Positions 9,893 to 46,885 of a stretch of 64,000 nucleotides of DNA are shown in pieces. How positions within the stretch are numbered: position 1 is the first letter of the stretch; the number at the start of each line of letters is the position of its first letter. The position numbers were made by a program, and so were the translations under genes. The stretch comes from an uncultured Myxococcales bacterium (GTDB lineage Bacteria; Myxococcota_A; Polyangia; Palsa-1104; JAEUJZ01): assembly GCA_964537055.1 (NCBI GenBank), contig CAZHYV010000004.1:46172-110171 (forward strand), given 5' to 3'. The notes under the pieces are model-generated. The model was not told where the DNA came from. It saw nothing but the letters and a program-made list of their open reading frames with translations, and did no database searches.

Positions 9893-10951
9893 ATGATACG
9901 TGTTCTTGAACTAAATCGAGCAGTTGAAAATGCTCGTGTTGTGGAGTACCAAGACGCCCAAGCAGCGCTTTTCGCCCAAAGGCCTGATTCCCATATCCTA
10001 CGTTGGGTAGATATTACTGAGCAAACAAGCGAAGATATTGAACTTATTCGGAAAGGGTTTCAATTCCACCCCTTAACGCTTGAGGATTGCCTCCATTTCG
10101 ATCAACGTCCAAAGCTAGAGGAATTTCCCGGGAATCACCCCTATGTATTTATTGTCATTCATAATTTTAAGATATGCATGACAGGAGATACAACCCATTC
10201 TGACGAAGCTTTGACCCTCCCTCAAAGTAGCCATTCTTCTACCAAAGAAAAGTCTTTGCTTCGGATGCAAGAGGTGCATGCCTATTTGGGCCCGAATTAC
10301 CTCGTGACGGTACATCGCCATCCAATTGCTGAAATTGATGGATTATTTCAAAGGTTACGTTCTGATACCGGTCTTTTTCAAAGAGGATGCGATTTCCTTT
10401 ATTATCTTCTTGCCGACCAACTATGCGATAGCAATTTTCCCGTGCTCGAGCATCTTTCGGACGAACTCGATCAAATCGAGGAACTAGTGATCGCTTCTCC
10501 AGAAAAACGAGTGCTTACGTTAATTTACGATACTCGGAAAGTGCTGGTAAGGATGAGAAGAACGTTATCCCCGCAGCGCGATCTGATGGCGCTGTTAGCA
10601 CGTCATGGAGGTGGGACGTACATCCAGCCAAGCACAGCCCCCTATTTTCGCGACGTATATGACCACCTTGTTAGGATCAACGAAGCGATTGAATCAGGTC
10701 GCGACCTTTTAGGAAACTGTGTTGATGCATATATGTCTTCAGTAGGACAGCGCACCAACGATATTGTAAAGCAGCTCACCATTCTTTCGTCAGTGATGCT
10801 GCCATTGACATTTGTGGTAGGCTTTTTCGGCATGAATTTTGACGCACTGCCTTTTCATTCGCTCGGTTGGTTTGTATTTGTTTTACTGGTGATGATTTTG
10901 ATTTTGCCGACAGGCATGGTCTATTGGTTTCATCGGAAGAGATGGATATGA
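9893..10951 (+). CDS. corA: CorA-family Mg2+/Co2+ transporter
   Basis: C-terminal GMNF motif (FFGMNFDALP) followed by two TM helices. Confidence 0.85.
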   Translation: MIRVLELNRAVENARVVEYQDAQAALFAQRPDSHILRWVDITEQTSEDIELIRKGFQFHPLTLEDCLHFDQRPKLEEFPGNHPYVFIVIHNFKICMTGDTTHSDEALTLPQSSHSSTKEKSLLRMQEVHAYLGPNYLVTVHRHPIAEIDGLFQRLRSDTGLFQRGCDFLYYLLADQLCDSNFPVLEHLSDELDQIEELVIASPEKRVLTLIYDTRKVLVRMRRTLSPQRDLMALLARHGGGTYIQPSTAPYFRDVYDHLVRINEAIESGRDLLGNCVDAYMSSVGQRTNDIVKQLTILSSVMLPLTFVVGFFGMNFDALPFHSLGWFVFVLLVMILILPTGMVYWFHRKRWI

Positions 10952-11964: not shown

Positions 11965-12251
11965 CGAGATACATTCCTTTAGAAGTACCTTCTTTTAAAC
12001 GTGTTCTTACTAAGCGTATTCTTACCGTAACAACAGATTAAGTAGTTAGACTCTCATTGCAGGTCCTTATTCTTGTCGGAGAAAGTAGGAACATGTAGTC
12101 TGAAGTAATTACTTATCTCACGAATTTTCATACGATCTTTTACTTTTTTTCCTAACCAAAAATTTTTGTGTTAGGTTGCGCTCTCGTTAGGGCAGCAGAG
12201 AATACGTTTGCCCTTAATAACCCTGGTTGTAACTACCGTTTTGGAGATTTT

Positions 12252-13772
12252 ATGAAAACATATATTGCGCTTCTAGGAACCCTTCTTTTCCTTGCTTCTT
12301 GTAACTTTAGCATCCCGGCAAAGCCTTTTCCAGATCCAATGGATATGCCTCCCGTTGGAACACAAGATTTTAACGTAGCCAACATTGATACAAAATTCGG
12401 TGATACTAAAGGGGGAACGACCATCACCCTTACGGGCAAGGGGCTCACCCAAGATACCAAAGTGACGGTTGGCGATAAGGTAGCTGTGGTCAAAAGTGCA
12501 TCTGCAGACGGGACTAGCCTTCAATTCACTTTACCAGCAAGTCCAGGAACTGTGGGAAAGAAAACCATTACCCTCATGAACACAAAGGGTATGGTAGTCG
12601 AGTTAAAGGATGTGTTTACTTACTATTTAGGAAATATCTCTTTTACCAGTATGTCTTCAGCAGCAATTCTTAGTAGTACCTCTCCTTTGCATATTGCGGT
12701 AGCGAATCTTGATAATGACGCAAACAACATTCAAGATCTTGCCATTGTCAATATGGACAACCGAAACGTTGATATTCTGGTTGGGGACGGCCAAGGGAAC
12801 TTCAGCCTGAATCCAATCCTCCAGTTTAACTTTGGTGGTACTTACCATAATTTTTCTGCTACTGGAGATTTCAACAACGACGGTCTTACCGATTTAGCCA
12901 TTATCAGCCCAGGCGATAGTTTAATCGCGCTTGCCCAAAAACGTCCGGGAGCAACCAACGGTTTTGTTATTGAGGGAAACATAGGTTCTGGGAATATCCC
13001 AAATGCGATTGTTCTTGTGGATCTGGATGGAGATAACCGTCTTGACATTGCTGCAGCCAACACAGACACCACCAATATGAACCGTCTTAGCGTCTATCGT
13101 AATAATACTCCAGCCATGGGAGTCGTTACCTACCTTCCTCCCCAAAAACTTCCTCTGCCAACTGCCGTTTCCTCCCTCCTAGCAGCGGACCTGAACAAGG
13201 ATGGAAAAGTTGACTTGGTTGCTGCTTCCTCTACCAGCTTCCATGCCCTCCTTAACACAGGGATGGCCGCCACACTCTTTGCAGGCACTCCAGCGGACCA
13301 AGCTTTCTCAGGCTTTACTCCTCAGGCAGGGTTTTTTGCCCCTCTTTCGATGACCTCCTCATCTAACCAGATAGACCTTGCGTTTGTAGGAACGGATGGC
13401 ACCAACAAGACCATGGCTTTCTATGATAACACCTCTCCAGGGACCTCCCTTGCCTTTACCAAAAACACTGCCAGTGTGATGGTAGAGTCAGGCGTGGGAA
13501 ATCCGGCAAGCTCTCTAGCCATGGTTGATTTCAACAAAGATGGCTATAACGATTTTGTTGTCACCTCAGGTTCAACCATTCGGGTCTATCTTAGCAAAGC
13601 CTTAGAAGGAAAAGGCCTAGCTTTCGCAGATGCGATTGTATTCCAGACCGTAACACCTACGGTCCTAAGAGACATGAAATTGGTAGATACCAACGCAGAT
13701 GGATTAATGGATATCGTCACCATTTCTCGAAATGATGCAAAGGTCTACGTATTCCAAAATAGCTCAAACTAG
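12252..13772 (+). CDS. lipoprotein with an IPT/TIG domain followed by FG-GAP (integrin-alpha-like) repeats
   Basis: Start at the ATG with a GGAGA SD; lipobox LASC. DxNxDGxxD repeats: DFNNDGLTD, DLDGDNRLD, DLNKDGKVD, DFNKDGYND, DTNADGLMD. Confidence 0.75.
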   Translation: MKTYIALLGTLLFLASCNFSIPAKPFPDPMDMPPVGTQDFNVANIDTKFGDTKGGTTITLTGKGLTQDTKVTVGDKVAVVKSASADGTSLQFTLPASPGTVGKKTITLMNTKGMVVELKDVFTYYLGNISFTSMSSAAILSSTSPLHIAVANLDNDANNIQDLAIVNMDNRNVDILVGDGQGNFSLNPILQFNFGGTYHNFSATGDFNNDGLTDLAIISPGDSLIALAQKRPGATNGFVIEGNIGSGNIPNAIVLVDLDGDNRLDIAAANTDTTNMNRLSVYRNNTPAMGVVTYLPPQKLPLPTAVSSLLAADLNKDGKVDLVAASSTSFHALLNTGMAATLFAGTPADQAFSGFTPQAGFFAPLSMTSSSNQIDLAFVGTDGTNKTMAFYDNTSPGTSLAFTKNTASVMVESGVGNPASSLAMVDFNKDGYNDFVVTSGSTIRVYLSKALEGKGLAFADAIVFQTVTPTVLRDMKLVDTNADGLMDIVTISRNDAKVYVFQNSSN

Positions 13773-14067
13773 TCTTCCCCTCAAAAGCCGGCCTGATCGA
13801 AGGAAGGCCTGGTTGAGCGTTCTTTGCCTCATCTAGGCCTTCCCTTTTCGCCCTAACAGCCTACTATCTCCTACAAGCAGATTTCGTAATAACCTTTTAA
13901 GAAATTGGTGGCTTAGCTCTTCCTCAAGAAAAAACAAATTAGTCTGTATTTGCGCTTGAACCTGTGCTAAAATGAATAAACGTTTATCTTTCTAAAGCAC
14001 ATAGATAGACATGAAGCAAAAGAACGATCAAATGGTATCGTAGGTAATGAACGTAAAGGAGACAGTG

Positions 14068-15492
14068 ATGGGACAAAAACATTTATCTCAAATCTTTGGG
14101 GTCGTATTTCTGCTCTCTTCTCTAAGCTGTGGAACAAATTCCTCAGATCCAAATGGCGCTATTGATCCATCCCTACCCCCTAAAATTAAGTCCATCACCC
14201 CTGGCTCCGCAAAAACAAGCGGTGGCGAAGTCGTTTCGATCCAAGGAGAAAACTTCATTTCTGGAATTACTGTTTCCTTTGATGAGCAAGCTGCAGAGGA
14301 TATAGACCTGGTCTCTTCTACAGAAATTAAAGTTTTGGTGCCTAAACGGATAGGGATTCAAGGGAACGTTCCCGTAAAACTTACAAACCATACCTCTCAC
14401 GGAGCACTCTCTGATACGGCGACTGAACTATTTGCTTACTATCCCTCGTTGATGCAATTTGGTTCAATTCTCTCCGTCCAAGGAATGGTCCCCACTCTTG
14501 TTGCAACTTCTTTGAATATGACAGGTGATGGAAGGCCATCGCTTATAGCAAGCCAGACGAATAGCCAAACCAATGATACCGAGTTAAGCGTTTTTTTATA
14601 TAACTCTGTGACAAAGCAGTTTGTTGGTACTTCGTTTTACTCGACAAAAGAGGTTCCTACGGTAATGTCTAAAGCATTTTTGAATACCGATAACAAAGAA
14701 GATCTTCTTGTGGGTCTCTCCTCAGGAAAGATTTTACTGTTCTTCAATAATGGGGCAGGAAGCTTTGTTCCACCCATTACGCTAGTGCCCGCTATTACAG
14801 GGGCTGTTAAATTTCTTACCCCTGTAGACTACAATAAAGATGGGAATATGGATATCGGCGTTATGGTGGATAACTACCTTGGCTTTATTCATAATAACGG
14901 GGATGGAACCTTCGCCCTTTTAAAGATGGGATTTGCAGGAAATACTCCCACCTTTCCGGCGATGATTGATTATAACCATGATGGTTGGTTAGACTTTTTA
15001 GTAATCTCCAATGCCAGAACGTACTTACTTCAAGGGAACCCAGACGGAACTTTCCAAACGGCCTCTGGCATGAGTGAGATTGCCTCGCCAAAAGCTTTCG
15101 TGGTGTCTGACTTTAACAACGATAAGAAGGCAGATCTCTTGGTAGTGAAAGACAATGGTGGTGTCATAGAATCCAGCATATGGTTCGAACACGGAGGAGC
15201 TTTTCAGGCAAAAGATTCCCTACCTTTTGTAGAAATCCCTAAGAATATGATAGCAACTGACTTGAATGGAGATTCAATACTCGATCTAATCATTACAGGC
15301 GAAAGTATGATGTTTGCTCATCTTGGCAATGGAGATGGAACTTTCCAAGCGCCTACTTATTTCTCAAGCCCTGCGAAGAGCAGCTTGGTTACGATTGGGG
15401 ACCTCGACTTAGATACAAAGCCCGATATTCTAGTTTACTACCTCGACGGAATGAACCCTACTCTGGGACTTGTCCCGAACACATCCCAGTAA
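14068..15492 (+). CDS. secreted protein with an IPT/TIG domain and FG-GAP repeats (paralogue of 12252..13772)
   Basis: Start at the ATG with an AAGGAGA SD. Repeats DYNKDGNMD, DYNHDGWLD, DFNNDKKAD, DLNGDSILD. Confidence 0.75.
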   Translation: MGQKHLSQIFGVVFLLSSLSCGTNSSDPNGAIDPSLPPKIKSITPGSAKTSGGEVVSIQGENFISGITVSFDEQAAEDIDLVSSTEIKVLVPKRIGIQGNVPVKLTNHTSHGALSDTATELFAYYPSLMQFGSILSVQGMVPTLVATSLNMTGDGRPSLIASQTNSQTNDTELSVFLYNSVTKQFVGTSFYSTKEVPTVMSKAFLNTDNKEDLLVGLSSGKILLFFNNGAGSFVPPITLVPAITGAVKFLTPVDYNKDGNMDIGVMVDNYLGFIHNNGDGTFALLKMGFAGNTPTFPAMIDYNHDGWLDFLVISNARTYLLQGNPDGTFQTASGMSEIASPKAFVVSDFNNDKKADLLVVKDNGGVIESSIWFEHGGAFQAKDSLPFVEIPKNMIATDLNGDSILDLIITGESMMFAHLGNGDGTFQAPTYFSSPAKSSLVTIGDLDLDTKPDILVYYLDGMNPTLGLVPNTSQ

Positions 15493-15555: not shown

Positions 15556-16611
15556 TTAAGAACGAATCAGCTTCAGTATATCCCTAATCGTAATGAGAAG
15601 GATCAATCCAAGCAGAAGCAAGAAGCCAATGGCATGGATCCATTGTTCGGCTTTCTTCGAGACGGATTTTCGGGTAATCATTTCCCAGCCGATAAATAAA
15701 AGCCGGCCGCCATCAAGAGCAGGAATGGGAAGCAGGTTAAAGAATCCTAATGCTGCACTAATGAGGGCAATCGTTTCAAGAGCTTCAATCACCCCAGCAC
15801 GAATCTGGCCCTTCAGCTGCCTTACAATTTGTACAGGCCCGCCTACCTCTTTTAAAGCTTTTCGGTCTGTAAACATCTTCTTAAACCCCTGGATCTGTGT
15901 CCAGGTAAGCGCCACGGGATAGATAAGCGCATTCTTTACAGCAGTCCCTAACCCAAGGTGCTGCCGCTCGATCTTAGGGATAGTGACTACCCCAATCCGC
16001 CAACTGTTCTCTTCAAACACAGGGGTCACCATGACGGTTTGCTTATCATGCCCCCTTTGAATCTCAATCACCATCGGATGACCGGCGGATTTCTGAATGC
16101 GTTCTACAAATTCATCAGGGGTCTTGATAAAAACACCATCCAAGGTGAGGATGGTATCCTTCATTTGGAGCCCTGCTTTTGCAGCTGGATATCCATCCAA
16201 GGCTTGTCCAACCATCACTCCCTCTTCCAAAGGAGTAGGCGTCCCTGCACTTAGGTTCAGACCCAATACCAGAAAGCAGGCAAATAGATAGTTGATCAGG
16301 GGCCCGGCAAGCACTACCAAAAACCGCTGCCAACCAGGCCGATTTGGATAAAGCCTAGGGTCTGCAGGATCGTTTTTCTTTTCTCCTTCTTCTTCAGGGT
16401 TCAGCCCGGCGATCTGTACATAACCTCCTAAGGGAATCGGAGCAATTTGGTAGGTCGTTTCTCCTATCTTCTTTGACCATAAGGCTGGACCAAATCCAAC
16501 CGAGAATTTATCCACCCGCATCCCGCAAGCACGAGCCATAAGCAAATGACCAAATTCATGAATGATCACCAAGAAACATAAAGCCAAAATGGCAAGAAGA
16601 ATAGAAAGCAT
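15556..16611 (-). CDS. rseP: RIP site-2 zinc metalloprotease RseP
   Basis: HEFGH motif in the first TM helix, a PDZ domain, and a C-terminal LDGG motif. Confidence 0.85.
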   Translation of the reverse strand: MLSILLAILALCFLVIIHEFGHLLMARACGMRVDKFSVGFGPALWSKKIGETTYQIAPIPLGGYVQIAGLNPEEEGEKKNDPADPRLYPNRPGWQRFLVVLAGPLINYLFACFLVLGLNLSAGTPTPLEEGVMVGQALDGYPAAKAGLQMKDTILTLDGVFIKTPDEFVERIQKSAGHPMVIEIQRGHDKQTVMVTPVFEENSWRIGVVTIPKIERQHLGLGTAVKNALIYPVALTWTQIQGFKKMFTDRKALKEVGGPVQIVRQLKGQIRAGVIEALETIALISAALGFFNLLPIPALDGGRLLFIGWEMITRKSVSKKAEQWIHAIGFLLLLGLILLITIRDILKLIRS

Positions 16612-16745: not shown

Positions 16746-17924
16746 ATGACTATGCATGAAAGTTTTATTTTCAAACAGATTCAACGTGGAAACCGAAATC
16801 TTGTCATTTTCAGCCTTTTCTGGATCTTCTTTGCGGTCGCAGGTCTTATTTACAAGAACAACTTTTTCAAACATCTTTTTACTTCGAAGATAACCCCACC
16901 TAGCGAAGTTTACGAATTGAAAGACGAACAATCCTCAAAAGGGAAATTTGTTCGTTTAGAAGCAAACGAAATTTTCAATTTATTTTATGTAGAATATGAG
17001 CAACAAGAAGGGTCGAAATCGTCACAGACAGATCTTGCCCAATTTTGGGCCGTGATGATTTCGCCCTCTGCAGACAAAAACATCGCCGCTGTAAACACCC
17101 CTGTTGAGAAAAAAATCCTAATCGTAAAATTTGATATCAAAGATCCACGCGTTAAAGATCATTTGGAAAATACGGAATTTTTAGAGCTGGTCGGAAAGGC
17201 CCAGCGCCTTGAGGGAGAGCTACAGCCATTTCCAACCTATCTAAAAAGTTATGCAAATAAAAATTTTAAAGATCTCCCTCTTGTCCCCGTGATGCTTGAT
17301 ACGAGAAATCAACGTCTGGATTCCTACCTAACTCTGGGGATTGGAGTACTTGTTCTCTCTGCAGGATTTTGGGGGCTTTATTTAGCCTACCGACGCTCGA
17401 AAGATCCAAGCCTTCACCCAATTAGCCGAGCAATTGCGAAGGTGGACACATTCGATGTTGTTGTAAATAAAATTGAAGCAGAAATGCAACGGCCGGATGT
17501 TAACCACATTGGACCTTTTACGATTTCAAAATCTTGGTTTTTCCGTAAATACCTTTTTGGAGCTCATGTTCTTTACCTTCCTGATTTGGTTTGGGTCTAT
17601 AAACAGGTGACCCAGCACCGTCATAACGGAATCCCCTCAGGAAAAACTTATGAACTTATTTGTTGGAAAAGAGATGGAAGCAAGCTAGCCCTTCATACCC
17701 GTAAAAAGCAAAGTGATCAGGTATTAGAAGCGTTAATCCAAAAGGTGCCCTATGTAATTTATGGATTTTCGGAAGAGCTAAAAAAGACCTGGGCCTCTAA
17801 CAGAGCCGATATGATCGCTGCAATTGATGCACAACGAAAACCTCCTTCTCCGTCGTTTGCCCCTGAACGCCCTAATCCTGAACCTCCACAGGAAATCAAT
17901 AACTCCGGGTATGCGCTTCCTTAG
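16746..17924 (+). CDS. hypothetical membrane protein with a Pro-rich C-terminus
   Basis: Two predicted TM helices; no known motifs. Confidence 0.45.
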   Translation: MTMHESFIFKQIQRGNRNLVIFSLFWIFFAVAGLIYKNNFFKHLFTSKITPPSEVYELKDEQSSKGKFVRLEANEIFNLFYVEYEQQEGSKSSQTDLAQFWAVMISPSADKNIAAVNTPVEKKILIVKFDIKDPRVKDHLENTEFLELVGKAQRLEGELQPFPTYLKSYANKNFKDLPLVPVMLDTRNQRLDSYLTLGIGVLVLSAGFWGLYLAYRRSKDPSLHPISRAIAKVDTFDVVVNKIEAEMQRPDVNHIGPFTISKSWFFRKYLFGAHVLYLPDLVWVYKQVTQHRHNGIPSGKTYELICWKRDGSKLALHTRKKQSDQVLEALIQKVPYVIYGFSEELKKTWASNRADMIAAIDAQRKPPSPSFAPERPNPEPPQEINNSGYALP

Positions 17925-18087
17925 GCGTCTCTGAAAATACTTGATTCCGAAGGCTCTTAAGAATTGCTATCCCGTTTTTCTGCTGATCCTGTACGGTCCA
18001 TGTACGTTTCTGTCGTTGAGGTACGGCAGAATTACATATTATTTGTTTGTCTTGCATGCACGTTGTCACGCATGTTACGATAAGTAT

Positions 18088-19923
18088 GTGCATACTTTAT
18101 CTGTTTATTTCAAGCAAATCCATAAAGTTCTCCTTACTATTCTGTTTATAGGAATAGCAAGTTGCTCACGTTCTCAAAACCCCTCTTTGGGGAGTTCCAA
18201 CGCTTCCTTTTTATGTCCCCAAGATGATCTATATGAATCTTGCCAAGCACTGCTCCGGCTTCATCAGCATCAGATCGGACAAAACGGAGGGTGGAAATCC
18301 GAATTATTTCAGCGCACCTGGGTAAAATCATCGAATATTTGCGATTGGCAGGGAGTCCGCTGTAGAGATAAGAAAGTCTTCGAACTCGATTTTACTGGGG
18401 CTGGAATTACCTCACTGCCTGAGCAACCTTTTGCAGGAATGGATGATCTGTCCGAAGTCATGTTAGGCTCTAACTTCATCCGCGTTCTTCCTCAGAAAAC
18501 ATTTGCTAGCCTCCCTTCTTTAACAAAGGTTTTTTTGAACAACACCTTAATTGAAGAAATTCAAGAGAATAGTTTCTCAGGCACATCAAATCTACAAGTA
18601 CTAGAATTAAAACAATCCCCTATTGTCAATGTGCATCCAAATGCATTTGCCGATTTGAAGAAGTTACAGGCACTATCGATTTCTCTTAAGAATCCTCAAG
18701 CTCTTCAAGCAATTCGCCGACTCTCCTCTCTAGAGAGGCTCGACATTCATCTTGATTTTCCAGACCTGCCGGCGAATGCATTTTTGGGTCTTTCGAGTTT
18801 GAAAAAGCTGCTTATCGAAAATTCTAGTCAACTTCATTCTATTTCTGCCGATGCCTTTCAATCATTATCAAATGTAGAAGAGTTCGTCTTTAACACGACA
18901 AATATTGGAGAATTTCCAGCTTTCTTATTTACCCCTCTAAAAAATGTAAGAACTTTATTCTTAGTAGGGCACCCAAGCCTAACCCAAATATCTCCTTTCG
19001 CATTTTCGGCTCTTATGAAGCTTGAATTTCTTGTAATGAGAAATTTCTCTCAGATCCAAGTTTTCCCTCCTTTTCTATTAAGCGATCTAAGTGCGTTAAA
19101 AGTTCTTCAAATGTCTGGGCATCCGTTGTGGAAGTCTATACCCGCTAACTTTTTTGAACATCTTCACACTTTAGAAACCCTACGATTGGAAGATAATGGG
19201 CTGGTAGAATTATCCAGCAAAACCTTTTCTGGCTTAATTAATCTGAAAGAGCTTGAGTGTAACAATAATCAGATCGTGAGTCTTTATTCTCAAACTTTTT
19301 CTACAATATCAGCAGTCAGGGTCATTAGCCTTAGGAACAATAAGATCTCAGTGCTTCCTAGCAATGTATTTTCTGTTATGACGAGTTTAGAAAGTTTAGA
19401 TCTTTCTTCTAATGAAATTTCTGTACTAGATAGGCAATCTTTTTTCGGTCTGCTTCAATTAAAACTACTTAAGTTATCATATAATAGAATTTTTGATCTA
19501 AGTGGAAACGTATTCGAATTTATACCAGCTCTGAGAAGTTTACACCTCTCTTCAAATCCCTTAGCTACCGTTCCGCAGGATCTGCTTTTACCTCTTTCGC
19601 AATTAAGCAATCTTTATTTGTCAGATACATCTTTAAAATCGATTCCAGAAAATTTCTTCAGAAGACAATTGAGATTGATGTGGCTTGATTTATCAAGCAA
19701 TCGTTTAGAAAACTTGTCTACTTCTTTTTTTGAAGAGCTAAAAAATGTGAGACAGCTGTATTTACAAGGAAATCCACTTCAAACAGTCGATGAAAGAAAT
19801 TTCGATTTACTCGAGTCTTTAGTCCATCTCGACTTAACAAATACTCCCGTCTCTACTTCACTCAACCTTAGCTCGATTACATGTTCACGAGCTACTGTAT
19901 TGCCGAACCGAATGTGTTTTTGA
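18088..19923 (+). CDS. eukaryote-like leucine-rich repeat protein with an LRRNT_2-like Cys/Trp N-terminal cap
   Basis: More than 20 LxxLxxLxLxxN repeats. Cap CDWQGVRC. A GTG start at 18088 gives a signal peptide ending LLTILFIGIASCS. The true start is uncertain; the ORF track opens at 17941. Confidence 0.7.
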   Translation: MHTLSVYFKQIHKVLLTILFIGIASCSRSQNPSLGSSNASFLCPQDDLYESCQALLRLHQHQIGQNGGWKSELFQRTWVKSSNICDWQGVRCRDKKVFELDFTGAGITSLPEQPFAGMDDLSEVMLGSNFIRVLPQKTFASLPSLTKVFLNNTLIEEIQENSFSGTSNLQVLELKQSPIVNVHPNAFADLKKLQALSISLKNPQALQAIRRLSSLERLDIHLDFPDLPANAFLGLSSLKKLLIENSSQLHSISADAFQSLSNVEEFVFNTTNIGEFPAFLFTPLKNVRTLFLVGHPSLTQISPFAFSALMKLEFLVMRNFSQIQVFPPFLLSDLSALKVLQMSGHPLWKSIPANFFEHLHTLETLRLEDNGLVELSSKTFSGLINLKELECNNNQIVSLYSQTFSTISAVRVISLRNNKISVLPSNVFSVMTSLESLDLSSNEISVLDRQSFFGLLQLKLLKLSYNRIFDLSGNVFEFIPALRSLHLSSNPLATVPQDLLLPLSQLSNLYLSDTSLKSIPENFFRRQLRLMWLDLSSNRLENLSTSFFEELKNVRQLYLQGNPLQTVDERNFDLLESLVHLDLTNTPVSTSLNLSSITCSRATVLPNRMCF

Positions 19924-19958
19924 AAGATAATTAATTAGTGATCACAGGAGAATTTTCC

Positions 19959-21260
19959 ATGGTGTTTGGATCTATACTTCAAAATCTCCGGAACTTCGGA
20001 TGGCTGCTTGTGACTGTCATAGTTCTTAGCGAATGCTCGAAAACAAGACCACCTTCTGCGGTACAAGAGCAACCTCCTGTTCCCCCAGATCAACAATGTG
20101 CACAGGGACCTCTTTACGATGCCTGTAAATCTCTAATCGCTATTCACGAACTGATGCCAGCCTCCTCTTGGAATATAGGGCATAATAAAACTTGGTTAAG
20201 AAAAAACAATTTGTGTGAATGGGAAGGCGTTTTATGCAATCAAACCTCGGAACGTGTTGTTGGTTTATCGCTGATAGGATATAGTAACGCAATAAATGTA
20301 GTTACATTTCCTCCGTCTGTATTCCTAGGCCTTCGAGATTTAGAAGCGTTAGAAATTTCCCAATTCCACCTTAAACTTCAATCTCAGCAATTTGCTTCTC
20401 TTACCAAATTAAAACGCTTGGTCATTGCCGAGAATTTGATCGATGAAGAGATTCCAGAAACGACCTTTCAAAATCTACGAAGTCTTGAAATTCTAGAGCT
20501 CTCAAAAAATAAGTATAATCGACCTTGGCTTTTACCCACTGATCTATTTCAAGATTTGATCTCTCTTACGCAACTTCATCTTGAGAGAAACGGGTTTCTC
20601 CAAGTTCCTCAAGGGTGGTTTAAATCATTGAAGCAACTAACTTACTTAGATATCTCTGGTAACCAAATTACGGCCTTGTCGCGGGGTATTCTACAGGGGT
20701 TAGAAAATGTGTCGATTTTAGAGGCTGCAGAAAATCAGATTGGAAGCCTTCCTGTAGACACATTCTTTGATATGGCACTGCTAGCACGCTTAAATCTAAG
20801 TAACAACTCTCTTACGGTTCTCCCAGAGCGCTTGCTAGAATCAAATTTATTTCTGCGCTCTATCAATCTATCGGAGAACCAGTTTCATAGTCTGCCTGAG
20901 CTTCTCTTCCGAAATCAAGAATTCCTCCTCAGCCTCGACCTGTCAGGAAATTATTTCCAAAGACCGTTGCCCAACGGTCTCTTTGCAAACTTGTCAAACC
21001 TAGAAGATTTGGACCTAAGCAGAACAGGACTTCAGAAGCTCTCCTCTACTTGGTTTGCACTACCCCGTTTACGAAATCTTCAATTAAGTGAGAATCTTAT
21101 TGTTCTTGACTCTGCTGTGGTATTTGACCAGCTTCGCAACATCCTTTTTATCAATTTGGGAGAAAACAACCTACCAAACACTGCGAGAGTATCTGCAACC
21201 ACTTGTACCCAGCTAAAACTGAACCAGGGATTGATCTATCCTCAATTTCTGTGCCCCTAG
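19959..21260 (+). CDS. eukaryote-like leucine-rich repeat protein (tandem paralogue) with an LRRNT_2-like cap
   Basis: ATG at 19959 with an AGGAG SD. Cap NLCEWEGVLC, followed by ~15 LRRs. Confidence 0.75.
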   Translation: MVFGSILQNLRNFGWLLVTVIVLSECSKTRPPSAVQEQPPVPPDQQCAQGPLYDACKSLIAIHELMPASSWNIGHNKTWLRKNNLCEWEGVLCNQTSERVVGLSLIGYSNAINVVTFPPSVFLGLRDLEALEISQFHLKLQSQQFASLTKLKRLVIAENLIDEEIPETTFQNLRSLEILELSKNKYNRPWLLPTDLFQDLISLTQLHLERNGFLQVPQGWFKSLKQLTYLDISGNQITALSRGILQGLENVSILEAAENQIGSLPVDTFFDMALLARLNLSNNSLTVLPERLLESNLFLRSINLSENQFHSLPELLFRNQEFLLSLDLSGNYFQRPLPNGLFANLSNLEDLDLSRTGLQKLSSTWFALPRLRNLQLSENLIVLDSAVVFDQLRNILFINLGENNLPNTARVSATTCTQLKLNQGLIYPQFLCP

Positions 21261-27634: not shown

Positions 27635-27890
27635 GATGCTTTAAGAAATTGCTACAACCGTGGCTGGTTGGTCTTTAGTTAAACATGAGGTTTTCTAAGG
27701 ACAAAATTTTCGATGAGGTCGAAAAACTTACCTTGATGCTTATCCTAGCATAAATGGAAGTAGAGGGGCTAACGAGATTTCATTTCAAAAGAAGCGATTT
27801 TTATTTTTATGCAACTAGCTTCTTAAGGGCTCTTACGTTTCCATTACTTTCTCATTGCCGAACCCTTCGTTCCTGTGGTACCGTAATAAA

Positions 27891-28397
27891 ATGCGTCTTT
27901 CTCTCTCTGAACAAATTTTTTCGAAAAAGTTACTTACCCAAATCACATTTGCAGGAATGATGTCTTTGGGCATCATCTCTTCGGCATTTGCGATTACTTC
28001 TTCTGATTTTAGCAATCTTTGCCCTTACGTTGCGGGAATTTCTCCTCCCACTGGGGGTAACAACCCACCTGGAAGCAACAATCCGTCTGGAGGCAACAAT
28101 CCTCCTGGAAGCAACACCCCCTCCTGTACCGGAGTTGATTCTGATGCAGACGGATTCCCCGATGCTTGCGATAATTGCCCTACTATCCCAAATGCTGATC
28201 AAACAGATACAGGAAACCTCAAAATCGGCGATGCCTGTCGGCCTGGGGTTTCGGGAGGGGTTGGATGCACAATCGGGACAAATGGTTCTGCTGGACAAGG
28301 ATTTCCTCGATGGTATGCATTCGCCCTGCTTCTGGGAGTGATATCGATGCTCTTCCTGCGCAAGCGGTTTTCTCAAAGCACACATGCAGCTCGATAA
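27891..28397 (+). CDS. small secreted protein with Gly/Pro/Asn repeats, a thrombospondin type-3 (Ca-binding) repeat and a MYXO-CTERM-like Cys...TM...RKR tail
   Basis: DSDADGFPDACDNCPTIPNADQTD. C-terminal GVGCTIG...WYAFALLLGVISMLFLRKR. Confidence 0.55.
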   Translation: MRLSLSEQIFSKKLLTQITFAGMMSLGIISSAFAITSSDFSNLCPYVAGISPPTGGNNPPGSNNPSGGNNPPGSNTPSCTGVDSDADGFPDACDNCPTIPNADQTDTGNLKIGDACRPGVSGGVGCTIGTNGSAGQGFPRWYAFALLLGVISMLFLRKRFSQSTHAAR

Positions 28398-35966: not shown

Positions 35967-36971
35967 TTACTGGGACCATAAGCTCAGGGCAAAACCATAG
36001 GCATGTAGAAGGAACTCATTGCCCGGAGAAAGTGTGATCATACTTGGTTTCGATATGGGACCGAGATTCAGAGACTCATCGCCTGTATTAACGTTGTAAA
36101 AGCGCACGGTCCGCCCAGCAACTGCTACAGACTCTTCAGAAGAGGATAGGGCTACGGAAAGAACATCTCCATCTGTTTCAATCTGCTGCACCAAATGGCT
36201 GTCTTTGACCCGCCATAGGGTCAAAAAACTTCCGCTGCCACTAAATAGAAACTCGCCGTGTTTAGAGAATTTGAGGTCCCCTATCGCCTGGGATTTTGTC
36301 TGCTTGATCCGCATCCGTTTCCAGGTCTTGGTATTCCAAATGTCGATGATGCCATTCCTTCTCCCGGCTGCTGCCCATGTTCCCTGATCCGAAAGCACTA
36401 CTTTGGTCACACACGACCCACCCGCAGATAAAACCCGCAAGCGTTTCCCACGGTCTGCATCCCAAAGATAGACAGTCCCTCTATCTCCTCCAGATAAAAG
36501 CAACCGGCCGGACCCATCGAACGATAGAGTGGAAACAAAATCATTCGCTCGATGACCTGTCCATACTTTAAGTTCCTTCTGGGTATTCAGGTCCCAAATG
36601 TGAATGTCACGCCAGTCGTAATCATCTGCACGCCGAGAGAAGGCAACACGCAAACCATGGGAAAGAGCAATGGCTGTGGAATAAAAGCCAACCCTGATCG
36701 ATTTTCCGATCTCTTTTCGCGTATGAGAATCAAAGGTCCGCACAGCTCCTTTGGACCCGGCAGAGATAAATTTTGTTCCATCGGTGGAGAACGCAATGGC
36801 TAAAATTTCCCCATCGTCCGGTAAGTGAAGAGTCCACGTCCACGGAAGTTGAGGTCCTTCCTTACTAGACTCAGCTGAGGCGGCTCCGATAAGAGGCCCG
36901 AGAAAAGCAAAGACAAAGAAGAGGAAAAATGGGAGCATGCGGAATCGGGTTAATTTCATGATTAAGGCCAT
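35967..36971 (-). CDS. secreted WD40-repeat beta-propeller protein
   Basis: Signal peptide and at least five WD-like repeats (for example IHIWDLNTQKE, VYLWDADRGK, IDIWNTKTWK). Confidence 0.7.
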   Translation of the reverse strand: MALIMKLTRFRMLPFFLFFVFAFLGPLIGAASAESSKEGPQLPWTWTLHLPDDGEILAIAFSTDGTKFISAGSKGAVRTFDSHTRKEIGKSIRVGFYSTAIALSHGLRVAFSRRADDYDWRDIHIWDLNTQKELKVWTGHRANDFVSTLSFDGSGRLLLSGGDRGTVYLWDADRGKRLRVLSAGGSCVTKVVLSDQGTWAAAGRRNGIIDIWNTKTWKRMRIKQTKSQAIGDLKFSKHGEFLFSGSGSFLTLWRVKDSHLVQQIETDGDVLSVALSSSEESVAVAGRTVRFYNVNTGDESLNLGPISKPSMITLSPGNEFLLHAYGFALSLWSQ

Positions 36972-38369: not shown

Positions 38370-40442
38370 CTACCAAGTGTACGTCGGGCTCTTTGCGCTA
38401 TCGTTGAAAAAAACAAAGAGGCGGTTTTGTTCTCTAAAGCCTATCCACCCATGAACCAAAACGTCCTTCTGCCCATCTCCATCAAAATCACCTACCAGCG
38501 GCGGAAGACACCCTGCCTCTTCAGAAAAGCTGACTCGGCTTGTTCCCTCATCGTACCCATCGTCCTCCAAGCTAGCAAAAACGACGAGGCCGTTGCATGC
38601 GGGAACATTTTCAAGCTCCAATATATCTGGATATCCATCCTCTGTGATGTCATCGATGGCAGTCGTCCTCAGATTTTCCAACCGTACTTTGGCAGACCTT
38701 AAGGTTCGGAGATTTTTCTGCTCATCAAGGGCAAGAATATTGGCCCGATAAGATAATAGTGTAGAAGAAAAGCCACTTTTTTCCCAGGAAAGTTGGTTTA
38801 AATCGATCGCAAAAAGGGCGGGTTTCGCCTGATGCATATAGGATTTCACAACAAACCCGTCGAATACACCTCCTGCGTCCTTAGGCTGATAGTCCACAGT
38901 CGAGAATTGAAACCCTCCACGCTCTTGCCCTAAGACGAGTTTTACAGCTGCCCGCGATTGAAAGATCAGATCTTCCTGCCCATCTTGGTTGATGTCTAAT
39001 ACATCCACGAATTCGCTATCTTTCAGGAAGCCGCTTTTATCATCCCCTAGCAGGGTGAGAGGACTAAACTCTCCAGGTGTCTTGGTACCCCACATGACGC
39101 CCCATTGTGGACGTGAAAGAAAACCTGAAAGAACAAAGAATAGATCCCTTTGACCGTCATGGTTAATATCCAATACTTTGGTAGCAGAAACAGGCTGTGG
39201 AAAGGGATAATTCGGAATTTTTATTTTGGTAACTCCCATCAAGCTACTCGTTAACAGAAGAATGTACATCTCCTCTTTATCATCACTTTTCGTGCGCACG
39301 AGCAGATCAAGATAACGATCACTGTTGGCATTCATTGGAACCAGTTCAACAATAGGATCTGCCATCGAAAGAATAGCGCTTTTCTTAAGCTTCCGATCTG
39401 CATCTCCCCAAAAGATCTGAAGTTGCTTCTCTCCAACAACAATAGCATCACTTTTTCCATCTTGGTCGATATCCTTCACAAGTACTTGGGAAATCCGTTG
39501 AAAGTCGGGGGTTAAAGTGAGTGGTTCTTTTGCGAGAGTGACTGTCTTTCTTAGGAGGGGATAGCTTAGATTTTCAATTGATGGGAAATGTTTCAAATAA
39601 TAAGAAGGATATTCACGATCCTCTTTCATCTTCGAGAGAAGAGGTGGAAGGGAATAGATTGAGTAAAATTTACTCTCCATTGCTCCAGCAATAGATGCTA
39701 CTTCATCTCTTTTAAAATACGTTTGGTTTTCGCGACGGTTCCCCTGCATAAAGCCCCATAGGAGTCCAATTTCCCAACCACAAGGACCATCCATACCGAC
39801 ATCTGCCCTTGGAAGGAAGGGAGTGAACTCTGGTAAATAGACCTGGTGCTGACCTGTCTCACTATGTCTGGCTTCATGAAGCAGAAGCGTAGCCATCTCA
39901 ACCGCATCCCCTCGCTCCTCTCTTAACCTCATCTCCTCATTCTTATTGAGAATTTCCGCTGGAATAAGCTCCTCTCGGTTCTCACAAATATGGATCGCCT
40001 CCGGGGTATAGTAAGACGTATTGGTAAGAGAGTTGCATCCGTACCGTATCTCTAATGATGCGTTCAGAATATAATTGAACATTTCTTGGTTCAGATTCTT
40101 ATCTGGGTCCCGAACAAATCGTTCATAAAAATCAAACATCCCGGCTTCTTTTATGGTACCAAGCCCAAACATTTTTTTATCTTTGGGAAAAGCAAGGGGG
40201 CTCGTGAGTAAAAGGTGAAGCGCTCTGATTATATCTTGCTTCTCTTTTGGATGAGCTTCAAAAGAAGCTACATCGATCGGCGCCATCCGTGTGATTACCT
40301 CATCGCAACCGTGAGTCAACTCCCCCTGACAAGTCCCAGTTGCGGTAATTTCACTATAAAAATCCTTCTGGCAGGCCACAAACAGGAAACTGCTGAATAT
40401 TGAAAAAATCCACAAATCGTATTTGTTCAATAACATGATCAT
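38370..40442 (-). CDS. lipoprotein with an N-terminal Cys-rich domain bearing HEARHSETGQH (HExxHxxxxxH, metzincin-like spacing) and C-terminal FG-GAP repeats
   Basis: ATG at 40442 (the ORF-track start is TTG). Lipobox FVAC. FG-GAP-like DIDQDGKSD, DINHDGQRD, DINQDGQED, DITEDGYPD, DFDGDGQKD. C-terminus SPTYTW. Confidence 0.7.
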   Translation of the reverse strand: MIMLLNKYDLWIFSIFSSFLFVACQKDFYSEITATGTCQGELTHGCDEVITRMAPIDVASFEAHPKEKQDIIRALHLLLTSPLAFPKDKKMFGLGTIKEAGMFDFYERFVRDPDKNLNQEMFNYILNASLEIRYGCNSLTNTSYYTPEAIHICENREELIPAEILNKNEEMRLREERGDAVEMATLLLHEARHSETGQHQVYLPEFTPFLPRADVGMDGPCGWEIGLLWGFMQGNRRENQTYFKRDEVASIAGAMESKFYSIYSLPPLLSKMKEDREYPSYYLKHFPSIENLSYPLLRKTVTLAKEPLTLTPDFQRISQVLVKDIDQDGKSDAIVVGEKQLQIFWGDADRKLKKSAILSMADPIVELVPMNANSDRYLDLLVRTKSDDKEEMYILLLTSSLMGVTKIKIPNYPFPQPVSATKVLDINHDGQRDLFFVLSGFLSRPQWGVMWGTKTPGEFSPLTLLGDDKSGFLKDSEFVDVLDINQDGQEDLIFQSRAAVKLVLGQERGGFQFSTVDYQPKDAGGVFDGFVVKSYMHQAKPALFAIDLNQLSWEKSGFSSTLLSYRANILALDEQKNLRTLRSAKVRLENLRTTAIDDITEDGYPDILELENVPACNGLVVFASLEDDGYDEGTSRVSFSEEAGCLPPLVGDFDGDGQKDVLVHGWIGFREQNRLFVFFNDSAKSPTYTW

Positions 40443-40480
40443 AAAATCCCCCACAGGCTTGCTCGCCTCCAAAGGGATCT

Positions 40481-41428: not shown

Positions 41429-43462
41429 TCACCAAGTATACGAAGGGCTCTCTTTCCCCTCATGGAAAAAAATAAAGACCTGCTTCTTACTGGTGAGAAC
41501 GGCAATATCTTTATACCCATCCCCATTAAAATCTCCCACGATAGGAGAAGCCGAAAGGAAGGTGTTCTCCGAGCTTTCTGCATTAAGCAGAGGAATATTT
41601 TTATCAAGATACCCCTCTCCATTCATGCTTGTAAAAATTTTTATTTGAACTCCATTATACGTCCTCTGAGAAGATAAAATCTCGGGATACCCATCTCCTG
41701 TAAAGTCGTCAACGGCAAAGTTTATATTTTTGCCAGGATTCTCGCCTGATGTCTGTGAATACAAGGTGGATTTTTTCATAGGCTCCTGGGAGATAGGAAC
41801 CGGAAGCGCGTTCATGGTTTGGATGAAAAAGGGCCCCTTCTTACCTGCTAGTTCTGTTACTGCACTTTCGTTGATAGAGATAAGAGGATATTTTTGGCCT
41901 TGGCCTAAGTAGAAAAGAAAGAACGCTCTTGCCTCTGTGGAGTCTTGAGAGAAGGGATCTATCTTCTGGAAGTGAAATTTCTGCCCCGAGGCACCGAGCC
42001 CTAGGATCACACTGGTTTGTGAGCAAAAAATAAGATCCTCATAACCATCTTGGTTGATATCACTTAGGGTATGAAGCACACTGTCCTGAAGTAGATCCTC
42101 TGCATCCCACCCCCATAAAGTGAGAGGATGAAATTCTCGAGGGTTTTGAGATCCTAAACGCACACCCCAGCTCCGATCCGAAAAGTAATAGAACAGATCT
42201 TTCTGTCCGTCTCTATTAAGGTCGGCAATCTTTACAGAGAGGATAGACGGCCGCTCCACGTCAGCGGCAACTTCTATAAGGTCTGCCGATGATTCTTTCC
42301 CCGCGATCGGAAGAAAGTACGTTTTCTCGATTGAGGTAATTACAAGACCTCGATACTGAGGATCAGCATGGTCGAGGAAGTCGACGTTTGTAATCTCTTC
42401 TTCCATTTCAATCTTCTGCCCCCCTTCCAAGGTACGATTCGTGCTGCCAAAGAGAACCTGGATTTCCTTCTCACCTACCACGACGAGATCAAGCGTTCCG
42501 TTATGATCGATGTCTTTCCCAAAGCCTTTCTCAGTTACTTTTTCTACTTCGCTTGTAAAAGATTGTGCTTTATCTGGGAATACAACCATTGATATCATTG
42601 AGGGATAATGCAGACTTTCCACAAGCGGAAAATTCCTACGGTAGTCCTGGAAGAATGTCTTTTGCGAAACAGGCGGTAGAAATACCTCGGGAGGCGCAAA
42701 AATATAACCAAATCTGGTTTGCAATCGGTCAATCAGTTTCTTCAGGGTATCCCGGTCAAAATAGGGCACCTTGGCCTGATCATTTCCATGAAAAAATCCC
42801 CATAATAGCGCAGCTTCCCAGCCAAAGGGACCATCAAGTCCCACATCTCCTCGGGGTACAAGCGGAGTCGAGGAGGGCACGTAAACTTGGTGCTGCCCTG
42901 TCTCGCTATGTCTCGCTTCATGGAAGAGCAAAGTTACTGTCATAATAAGATTTTTCTCCTGGGTCTCGTCAGAGATATTCTTTGTTTGTTGCTCGGTAAA
43001 ACAAACATGGATCGCCTCGGGCGTGTAGAAAGAAACCCCTGTCACCGAGTTACATTCATACCGAATTTCTTGGGCTGCATTAAAAATATAATTGAGGATG
43101 GCTTGGTTGATGGAAGGAGTGGGCTCTTTTACAAAGCGCTGATAAAAATCATTCATGCCTGCCTCCTGCCATGTGCCTAATCCAAAGATTTTTTTATCCT
43201 CTGGAAATGCAATCGGTGCGGTCAGAAGCAGATGAATCGCTTTCACCACTCTTTGTTCAGCCCCAGGATGGTCTACAAAGGATTCCAGATCAAGAGGTGC
43301 ATTCGAAACAATCGCCTGGTAACAATCCTCGGTAAGTTCTCGTCCACAAGTCCCCGCTTCAACAATGTTTGTATAATAGTCTTTCTTACAAGAACTGAGG
43401 CCATAGCTCATAGAAAAAAGTCCTAGAGACAAGAGAATCTTGATGGGGAAAGATTTTATCAT
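41429..43462 (-). CDS. lipoprotein paralogue of 38370..40442 (HEARHSETGQH motif + FG-GAP repeats)
   Basis: Lipobox LSSC. The same conserved blocks are present (GTCxxELTxxC, RYxCNS, TLLxHEARHSETGQHQVY), and the C-terminus is SPSYTW. Confidence 0.7.
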   Translation of the reverse strand: MIKSFPIKILLSLGLFSMSYGLSSCKKDYYTNIVEAGTCGRELTEDCYQAIVSNAPLDLESFVDHPGAEQRVVKAIHLLLTAPIAFPEDKKIFGLGTWQEAGMNDFYQRFVKEPTPSINQAILNYIFNAAQEIRYECNSVTGVSFYTPEAIHVCFTEQQTKNISDETQEKNLIMTVTLLFHEARHSETGQHQVYVPSSTPLVPRGDVGLDGPFGWEAALLWGFFHGNDQAKVPYFDRDTLKKLIDRLQTRFGYIFAPPEVFLPPVSQKTFFQDYRRNFPLVESLHYPSMISMVVFPDKAQSFTSEVEKVTEKGFGKDIDHNGTLDLVVVGEKEIQVLFGSTNRTLEGGQKIEMEEEITNVDFLDHADPQYRGLVITSIEKTYFLPIAGKESSADLIEVAADVERPSILSVKIADLNRDGQKDLFYYFSDRSWGVRLGSQNPREFHPLTLWGWDAEDLLQDSVLHTLSDINQDGYEDLIFCSQTSVILGLGASGQKFHFQKIDPFSQDSTEARAFFLFYLGQGQKYPLISINESAVTELAGKKGPFFIQTMNALPVPISQEPMKKSTLYSQTSGENPGKNINFAVDDFTGDGYPEILSSQRTYNGVQIKIFTSMNGEGYLDKNIPLLNAESSENTFLSASPIVGDFNGDGYKDIAVLTSKKQVFIFFHEGKESPSYTW

Positions 43463-45497: not shown

Positions 45498-46481
45498 ATG
45501 TTGGTAGAACCAAGCGTCCCCTACCCCGGTCAGCACTGCGAGACCACTGCGACAGGAACTCTTTTGCTTCAGCATGGCATTTGTCTGTCAGAACCTATGC
45601 TGTTTGGCCTTGGGGAAGGCTTAAGCTTTATCTTCTGGAACATGAAGTCAATGGAATTTCCCTTTATTGGAGGTCGAACTAAACCAGATCTCCTCACCCA
45701 GAATATAGCAGCTCGTTTGGAGTTTTCTTTAGAAGTGCACGAGACTGCCTCTACAAGGAAGGCATGGGAACATGTGAAAGCAAACCTAGACCAAAACCGT
45801 TTGGTTGGCCTTAAGCTAGACAGTTTTTATCTTGAGTATTTCACAAAGCCTTTTCATTTTGCGGGACACTACGTTACGATGTATGGTTATGATGAATCGT
45901 TTGCTTATTTGGTCGATACAAAGCAGCAAGGAGGCAAGGTCACAACGTCTTTACAAAGTTTAGAACATGCCCGAAACGCAAAAGGGCCCATGTCTTCAAA
46001 GAATCTTTCGTATACTCTCACCCCTACAGGAAAACCATGGGATCTTGCACAGGCCGTTCGGACAGCCCTTCGTAACAATGCAAACACCTATCTGTCACCA
46101 CCGATCACCAATATAAGTTATCTAGGGATCGCGAAGATTGCGGCCTACCTTCCCACGTGGTTTGCAAAGAGTCCAAATCGATCAAAGGAATTTTGCACAA
46201 CGGCCATGCTGATGGAAAAAGCTGGAACAGGCGGTGCCTTGTTTCGCAACCTTTACCGAGACTTTCTTGAAGAAAGCCAAACGCTGCTTGGAGGAGCCTC
46301 TTTAAAGCAAGCTCATGCTTTATTTAGCGAAGCTGCTACGCAATGGACCGAGGTAGCGCACCTTTTGGAACAAGCAGGAAAAACGGAGCAGGTTCGGCAC
46401 GTGCAAAAAGCTGCAGGACTCCTTATCTCTATTTCGAAAACTGAGCACACCGCTATGAAGCTTGTCCAAGAAGCTTCTTGA
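45498..46481 (+). CDS. BtrH-N/DUF4872-like protein (papain-like Cys fold, HCE motif)
   Basis: YPGQHCETTATGTLL near the N-terminus, typical of BtrH_N family members. Confidence 0.5.
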   Translation: MLVEPSVPYPGQHCETTATGTLLLQHGICLSEPMLFGLGEGLSFIFWNMKSMEFPFIGGRTKPDLLTQNIAARLEFSLEVHETASTRKAWEHVKANLDQNRLVGLKLDSFYLEYFTKPFHFAGHYVTMYGYDESFAYLVDTKQQGGKVTTSLQSLEHARNAKGPMSSKNLSYTLTPTGKPWDLAQAVRTALRNNANTYLSPPITNISYLGIAKIAAYLPTWFAKSPNRSKEFCTTAMLMEKAGTGGALFRNLYRDFLEESQTLLGGASLKQAHALFSEAATQWTEVAHLLEQAGKTEQVRHVQKAAGLLISISKTEHTAMKLVQEAS

Positions 46482-46510
46482 ACCTTGTTTCTTTTTATAG
46501 TAGGCAAGTA

Positions 46511-46885
46511 ATGATGAAGACTTTTGGCAAAGCTCTCTTGTTTGGATTCCTTCTTTGGTTATGTATTTTCATGACTGCGTTTCTTATGTACTCAGTCCGT
46601 AAAAGCGATCCCATCTTCTTTGAAACCCTAATGACTCTCACCATTACGTTCTTTTCCGTGACAGCTTCCGTACTTTTCTTTCGGAAGACTCCTGTTTCCG
46701 TAGCGTATGGACTTTTGCTCGGCTTGCTCTGGGCTCTCATGAACGTACTCATCGACCTCCCTGCGTTTCTCTGGGGCCCCATGAAAATGCCCGTTCTGCG
46801 TTACATGCAAGACATTGGACTAACCTATCTCGCAATTCCAATGATTACCACTGGGTTTGGTTTTTTCACCTCCCCCAAAAAGTAA
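46511..46885 (+). CDS. small integral membrane protein (4 TM), unknown function
   Basis: Hydrophobic profile. ATG-ATG start at 46511. Confidence 0.45.
   Translation: MMKTFGKALLFGFLLWLCIFMTAFLMYSVRKSDPIFFETLMTLTITFFSVTASVLFFRKTPVSVAYGLLLGLLWALMNVLIDLPAFLWGPMKMPVLRYMQDIGLTYLAIPMITTGFGFFTSPKK

Follow-up and report, generated by a model that had tools for sequence, protein, structure and literature searches.

Gene and protein layout

The 64-kb stretch of DNA that was analysed (the window) carries a coding sequence (27891..28397, +) whose product is small and secreted, contains a thrombospondin type-3 (TSP3) repeat and ends in a tripartite tail. From the open reading frame (ORF) list and the sequence, translation begins at the ATG at 27891 and ends at the stop codon at 28395-28397, giving a product of 168 aa; a TTG at 27855 is a possible alternative start, from which the product would be longer. 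The identical protein was recorded in two independent assemblies, an NCBI contig of 251,739 bp and Logan SRR11567520. Around the gene, neither promoter nor terminator signals exceeded those in shuffled sequences.

The first half of the protein consists of MRLSLSEQIFSKKLLTQITFAGMMSLGIISSAFA (up to the cleavage mark) followed by ITSSDFSNLCPYVAGISPPT-GGNNPPGSNNPSGGNNPPGSN-TPSCTGV-DSDADGFPDACDNCPTIPNADQTDTGNLKIGDAC, and the second half, after DSDADGFPDACDNCPTIPNADQTDTGNLKIGDAC, of RPGVSGGVGC-TIGTNGSAGQGFPR-WYAFALLLGVISMLFL-RKR-FSQSTHAAR. Residues 1-34 (27891..27992, +) were assigned to a Sec-type signal peptide on the basis of sequence, hydropathy and an AlphaFold2 helix. Read from the sequence, its parts are an n-region, MRLSLSEQIFSKK, containing KK, a hydrophobic core, and AFA|ITSS, which marks the putative cleavage site. 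Hydropathy identified hydrophobic segments at the N-terminus (scanning window at residue 18) and from about residue 138 onward. AlphaFold2, run on the single sequence, returned a mean pLDDT of 51 and predicted two helices alone, at residues 5-41 and 140-162; block-mean pLDDT was about 80 for the second helix, and residues 37-137 were of low confidence.

The signal peptide is followed by a Pro/Asn/Gly-rich linker, the NNPPGS tandem repeat (28059..28120, +). The repetition in GGNNPPGSNNPSGGNNPPGSN is present in the DNA itself, with a period of 18 nt, 3.4 copies and 79% matches (TRF score 75), and the linker had pLDDT <50 in the AlphaFold2 model, which is compatible with disorder. A single TSP3 repeat of the Asp-rich, Ca2+-binding type, DSDADGFPDACDNCPTIPNADQTDTGNLKIGDAC, occupies residues 82-117 (28134..28241, +; Pfam, NCBIfam). 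The segment DSDADGFPDACDNCPTIPNADQTD scored 24.0 bits against Pfam TSP_3 (PF02412; E 3e-5), 1 bit short of the gathering score of 25, and the TSP3 consensus DxDxDGxxDxCDNCP...NxxQxD is complete in the sequence. The same region matched positions 190-229 of the NCBIfam model NF047638 (MtsC) at E 1e-7, and identity to the TSP3 proteins P0002-P0006 from the database was 51-65%.

The repeat runs into the junction CRPGVSGGVGC (residues 115-126; 28233..28268, +), whose motif is invariant in the alignment with P0002 and which ends in Cys126, the candidate modified residue, within GVGC. It is followed by a Gly/Ser/Thr-rich spacer of 14 residues, TIGTNGSAGQGFPR (127-140; 28269..28310, +), and by a hydrophobic transmembrane (TM) helix, WYAFALLLGVISMLFL (141-156; 28311..28358, +; hydropathy, AlphaFold2), in which there is no charged residue and no Pro. 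The predicted cytoplasmic end (28359..28394, +) comprises the basic cluster RKR (157-159) and a 9-residue extension, FSQSTHAAR. An earlier note, made from the letters of the DNA, had described a small secreted protein here with repeats, then one TSP3 repeat, then GVGC, a Gly-rich stretch, a hydrophobic segment and RKR. The ORF, the order of its parts and each of these elements were confirmed (sequence, hydropathy, AlphaFold2; TRF, Pfam and NCBIfam for the repeats).

Relatives of the protein

Among 5.8 billion protein clusters, searched with a word index, the protein itself was found together with P0002 (E 6e-17) and a small number of generic TSP3 proteins. P0002, the single informative relative other than self, contains TSP3 repeats and ends in ...GDACRPGVQGSPGCSSTGERGDRTNPLANGMALLSAAAVLALLGRRRRLNSRA; in its alignment with the target, GDACRPGV.G..GC is in register. 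A scan of GTDB genomes with the TSP3-plus-tail alignment, in which generic TSP3 proteins dominated among the matches listed (80 loci kept), gave the loci L002 and L005 and the calibration set used below. The ORF at 9461-10465 of L002 (Polyangia MAG JBGANQ010000018) has the same junction and the same tail. Both P0002 and L002 have GDACRPGVxGxxGC, then a spacer, a helix and RRRR.

When JGI metagenomes were scanned at the DNA level for the pattern GDACRPGVxGxxGC, five stretches were returned, four of which encode members of the same TSP3 family, and the motif was therefore taken to mark one family. The four JGI proteins lie on contigs of 65-69% GC, have 5 to about 40 TSP3 repeats and a conserved N-terminal Cys-rich domain, and end in an Ala/Leu-rich helix and RRRR. 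The members of this family, referred to as the Polyangia-type TSP3 family, with the GDACRPGVxGxxGC junction before the tail are P0002, L002:9461-10465, L090:1140-2144, L091:444-3239, L092:33-2018 and L093:1286-2290. Alignment A2 was built from artificially collapsed family sequences and is illustrative only.

The target shares with the family the GDACRPGVxGxxGC motif, a TSP3 repeat directly upstream of it, and the succession of Cys, spacer, helix and basic tail. An element before the first repeat, C..YVA.G, is also shared, in that C-DD-YVAPG of the family resembles C-P-YVAG of the target by eye. Unlike the target, the family has 5 to about 40 repeats, the N-terminal Cys-rich domain VNCNGI...GLQCVDYV, a GC content of 65-69% and tails rich in Ala, Leu and Arg, whereas the target has one repeat, the NNPPGS linker, no such N-terminal domain and a GC content of 46%. 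From these comparisons the target looks like a minimal member of the Polyangia-type TSP3 family with an inserted NNPPGS linker. The surroundings of MutS2 and LepA in relatives were searched for an ortholog: none was found beside MutS2, no tail-bearing ORF was found in loci L082-L088, and gene order at MutS2 was not conserved in the relatives fetched.

Comparison of the tail with sorting signals

MYXO-CTERM signals are defined by an invariant-Cys signature (often GCGC), a TM helix without charged residues or Pro, and an Arg cluster (Haft 2023, bioRxiv 10.1101/2023.06.07.544157; Guo, Haft and Wall 2025, PMC11980579). They are found near the C-terminus of signal-peptide proteins, with 3-73 per proteome, in Myxococcia, Polyangia and Bradymonadales. 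At the level of the genome, the criteria are a tail borne on unrelated N-terminal domains, a CPBP-family myxosortase (NF040914 core; MrtX, MrtC or MrtP) and type II secretion; every genus of Myxococcota examined is reported to have both MYXO-CTERM proteins and mrtX orthologs.

The target has the tripartite architecture, with a Cys signature, an uncharged and Pro-free helix and a basic cluster near the C-terminus, and it has a signal peptide on the same protein (sequence, hydropathy, AlphaFold2). An attached adhesin-type domain is a further point in common with MYXO-CTERM proteins, as is the Gly-rich setting of the Cys; the host, if it is a member of Myxococcota as is probable, would be another. 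The Cys-to-helix spacer is 14 aa in the target vs. 13 aa in TraA, whose MYXO-CTERM tail is experimentally validated. Unlike MYXO-CTERM tails, that of the target has one Cys where GCGC would be usual, and its helix is rich in Phe, Ile, Ser and Met where theirs are rich in Ala, Leu and Gly; its basic cluster is short and mixed Arg/Lys (RKR) in place of an Arg run, with 9 further residues after it.

The earlier note had read the tail as a MYXO-CTERM-type signal and named as checks an HMM search with TIGR03901, a search for other proteins with the same tail, and a search for a cognate CPBP/rhombosortase-like or archaeosortase-like protease. TIGR03901.2 gave no match at E<=10 to the whole protein, its last 61 aa or its last 39 aa, and the target thus does not reach the curated cut-off of 20 bits. 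All other NCBIfam C-terminal sorting models likewise gave no match at E<=10, either to the full-length protein or to its isolated tail. Processing by exosortase, rhombosortase or sortase A was rejected, as PEP, LPXTG and helix-adjacent GlyGly motifs and HMM matches were absent. Membership of the JDVT-, Synerg- and CGP-CTERM classes was rejected too (no NCBIfam match at E<=10; no DP-before-helix or CGP motif).

For calibration, TIGR03901.2 was run on TraA (20.6 bits) and on 8 tails from Myxococcota-labelled MAG loci (10.6-25.9 bits). Four of these nine comparison tails reached the 20-bit cut-off and all nine reached at least 10 bits; as the model was blank on the target, the target is further from the model than all nine. 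Within the Polyangia-type TSP3 family, the tails of P0002 (15.5 bits) and L002 (10.6 bits) were below the cut-off, so that the curated model would miss at least part of the family. An ad hoc HMM built from 12 gathered tails scored the target at -0.1 bits with composition correction. Without correction the same HMM gave 12.6 bits and placed the target first of 359 window ORF C-termini, in an alignment that was out of register on the Cys and dominated by composition. An exhaustive phmmer search of 1.84 billion representative proteins with the 56-aa tail returned the protein itself only.

The helix of the target makes use of Phe, Ile, Ser, Met and Lys, and high-GC myxobacterial tails of Ala, Leu, Gly and Arg; this difference in composition is the likely reason why the models failed on the target tail. 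A single HMM cannot serve all lineages, and lineage-specific models are needed (Haft 2023, bioRxiv 10.1101/2023.06.07.544157). Judged on its sequence, the tail is 'MYXO-CTERM-like' by architecture and by descent, not by profile. The reading given in the earlier note is the best available one but is only partly supported: architecture, homology to the Polyangia-type TSP3 family and probable host agree with it, and the TIGR03901.2 match failed.

A combination of TSP3 repeats with a MYXO-CTERM tail is known from Myxococcus xanthus MtsC (MXAN_1334; NCBIfam NF047638, 'cell-cell cohesion MYXO-CTERM protein'). The target and MtsC share TSP3 repeat(s) and a Cys-containing C-terminal sorting tail, and NF047638 was the best NCBIfam match of the target. 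The match was 31.3 bits vs. a cut-off of 350, covered residues 77-117 only, and set a protein of 168 aa against a model of 428 positions. The target is not an ortholog of MtsC.

Host lineage and the tail within the window

Window GC was 45.9%. For LepA encoded in the window, identity was 86-87% to metagenomic proteins without a name, 80% to the protein of a 'Myxococcales bacterium' MAG and 75-76% to those of several Polyangia MAGs. MutS2 was at most 45% identical to anything in the 5.8 billion clusters; its named matches were from Polyangia, Myxococcales/Myxococcota and Kofleriaceae, and others carried generic Pseudomonadota/Proteobacteria or Deltaproteobacteria labels. The lineage labels of the matches to these two markers are the submitters' own. 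The relatives fetched had 49-68% GC, and the named relatives 61-69%. The host is probably a deep-branching, low-GC and poorly sampled member of Myxococcota near Polyangia.

Rfam identified one tRNA in the window and nothing else. Among the approximately 30 ORFs scanned with Pfam or NCBIfam were MutS2 (Pfam record), MarC, MazG, a PTS/HPr-kinase cluster, a PAS hybrid kinase, an RseP-type M50 protease, an S26 signal peptidase, and secreted FG-GAP/TIG, LRR and WD40 proteins. No CPBP protease, type II secretion component, or exo-, archaeo- or rhombosortase was found among them, so the search for the cognate protease named in the earlier note came back empty for these ORFs. A regular-expression search for CPBP catalytic motifs in the window and all fetched loci was also negative, the expression being crude and its result no proof of absence.

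In a pattern scan of the 64 kb (six frames, stop-to-stop ORFs >=60 aa), four C-termini had a hydrophobic stretch with a basic cluster. Of the other three, one is the end of a 60-codon ORF, and two are those of polytopic membrane proteins encoded at 9893..10951 (CorA-like) and 46478..46885 (small, 3 TM). Of the four, the target alone also has a signal peptide and a Gly-Cys motif upstream of the tail, and a tail of this kind is not something that commonly arises by chance. The scan found no further ORF with such a tail in the 64-kb window, and with phmmer returning self only from its 1.84 billion representatives, neither search yielded the other proteins with the same tail that the earlier note had looked to. 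As the whole genome of M. xanthus has only about 35 MYXO-CTERM proteins, the lack of partners in 64 kb, with about 48 neighbouring genes, weighs little.

Proposed sorting and alternative readings

The explanation favoured here, with confidence a little above even, is that the target is a minimal, compositionally divergent surface protein of the Polyangia-type TSP3 family with a MYXO-CTERM-type sorting signal. The protein would be exported by Sec and cleaved by signal peptidase I after AFA34. Helix 141-156 would then retain the precursor in the inner membrane, with RKR on the cytoplasmic side. By analogy with the described system (Guo, Haft and Wall 2025, PMC11980579), Cys126 would be lipidated and a CPBP-family myxosortase of the MrtX, MrtC or MrtP type would cut just after it. 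Residues 35-126, a lipid-anchored polypeptide of about 92 residues, would again by analogy reach the cell surface by type II secretion and there display the one Ca2+-binding TSP3 repeat on its flexible Pro/Asn/Gly linker. A small adhesin or a Ca2+-dependent matrix-binding protein would be a plausible role (cf. M. xanthus MtsC in cell-cell cohesion). Every processing step of this pathway would be taken over by analogy, onto an anatomy and a homology that were observed.

The number of cysteines was considered with respect to lipidation. After putative signal-peptide cleavage, the mature Cys count was odd in P0002 (15) and L090 (21), which would leave the last Cys unpaired and fits a free terminal Cys. 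The mature target has six Cys, an even number, so that Cys44 would have no partner if Cys126 were lipidated; the two may instead form a Cys44-Cys126 disulfide.

This even count, which lets Cys126 be structural, is one of the observations that agree with a plain C-terminal anchor, in which helix 141-156 tethers the protein in the inner membrane with the TSP3 repeat in the periplasm, and there is no lipidation, cleavage or surface sorting. The tail was recognised by no sorting-signal HMM and had no relatives detectable by phmmer, and neither paralogous tails in the window nor a sorting protease among the approximately 30 ORFs scanned were found. However, Cys126 occupies the position of the tail Cys in a family having MYXO-CTERM-like tails, and a Cys, a Gly/Ser spacer, an uncharged helix, a basic cluster, a signal peptide and a probable Myxococcota host together match a known signal, and partners missing from 64 kb count for little given the genome-wide number in M. 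xanthus. A plain anchor was accordingly rated as rather unlikely, although it is the main rival.

The blank result with TIGR03901.2, when all 9 comparison tails were at least weakly seen, could also be accounted for by a lineage-specific Cys-containing sorting signal, distinct from MYXO-CTERM (cf. JDVT-, Synerg- and CGP-CTERM), for which a deep-branching, low-GC lineage would have a Mrt-type CPBP protease of its own. A tail that favours Phe, Ile, Ser, Met and Lys over Ala, Leu and Arg would fit such a signal, as would the distance of the host from sampled relatives (MutS2 <=45% identity; GC 46% vs. 61-69%). Yet the shared GDACRPGVxGxxGC junction shows descent from a MYXO-CTERM-type tail, a drop in GC would give such a shift in composition, one HMM cannot cover all lineages (Haft 2023, bioRxiv 10.1101/2023.06.07.544157), and this tail is the sole example. 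A separate signal was considered unlikely; if it did exist, this tail would be its first example seen, the Cys-CTERM/myxosortase system would extend to an unsampled lineage and a new model would be called for.

It is quite improbable that the gene is a decaying remnant, i.e., a truncated paralog of the multi-repeat TSP3 family that lost the N-terminal Cys-rich domain, gained the slippage-prone NNPPGS insertion and retains a non-functional tail. Such an origin would be in keeping with an orphan that has no ortholog in 5.8 billion clusters, lacks the N-terminal domain of the family and all but one of its repeats, and has in C44 a residue deprived of its likely partner, but the frame, the canonical signal peptide, the perfect TSP3 consensus and the tripartite tail are intact, and the sequence is identical in two independent assemblies. 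Processing by another sortase system (exosortase/PEP-CTERM, rhombosortase/GlyGly-CTERM or LPXTG sortase) has the generic tripartite layout in its favour and nothing more, and is very improbable, as TIGR02595, TIGR03501, TIGR01167 and related models gave no match at E<=10 and such enzymes were not found among the approximately 30 window ORFs scanned.

Joint occurrence of TSP3 and MYXO-CTERM already has a catalogue entry (MtsC, NF047638), the sorting mechanism and the enzyme family have been described, and the system has been characterised by experiment. If the favoured reading, a MYXO-CTERM-type signal on a divergent TSP3 surface protein, is true, one small and unusually minimal substrate is added to MYXO-CTERM/myxosortase surface sorting; TIGR03901.2 would then miss tails in low-GC myxobacterial relatives, as well as under-scoring the Polyangia TSP3 family (10.6-15.5 bits vs. 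20). The value of the result is in annotation, and no new question is opened by it.

Other observations

Secreted or lipoprotein-like adhesin-type proteins are abundant in the window as paralog pairs (FG-GAP plus TIG, FG-GAP, tandem LRR_8, and WD40 beta-propeller with signal peptide). Their ORFs are at 12168..13772, 14047..15492, 17941..19923 and 19938..21260 (+) and at 38370..40472, 41429..43462 and 35967..36971 (-); a Cys tail was found on none of these adhesin-type ORFs. The S26 signal peptidase (46962..48239, +) is unusually long at 425 aa, with an N-terminal multi-TM extension, and both its length and its position (LepA ... S26 peptidase - TsaE) are kept in a relative from a bioreactor metagenome (L087:11928-13205). 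A DUF6709 two-TM protein (16746..17924, +; 93 bits) lies divergently beside the RseP-type M50 protease (15556..16611, -).

Tails of a similar kind were also observed in genomes with other labels. At L005:6095-10261, in a MAG labelled UBA10199-1, a 1388-aa Asp-rich/TSP3-like protein ends in ...EGAGCSLNQLGATGLQGLLPFGLMLIPGAIFGYVRRKAKK. This tail comprises a Cys, a spacer, a helix and a basic cluster, was matched by no NCBIfam sorting model, and belongs to a genome whose label is not Myxococcota. Ends of the type P-C-G...(Ala/Leu helix)...RRRR, e.g., PPCGMGSAFGAALTLVGFAAARARSRRRR, were found on large proteins of MAGs labelled Planctomycetaceae, Planctomycetales or Phycisphaeraceae, and proteins with ends of this type are encoded at L028:4247-11467, L074:16373-19222, L074:11597-13042 (-) and L079:2-1771. 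These P-C-G...RRRR-type ends may represent a Cys-containing sorting signal outside Myxococcota.
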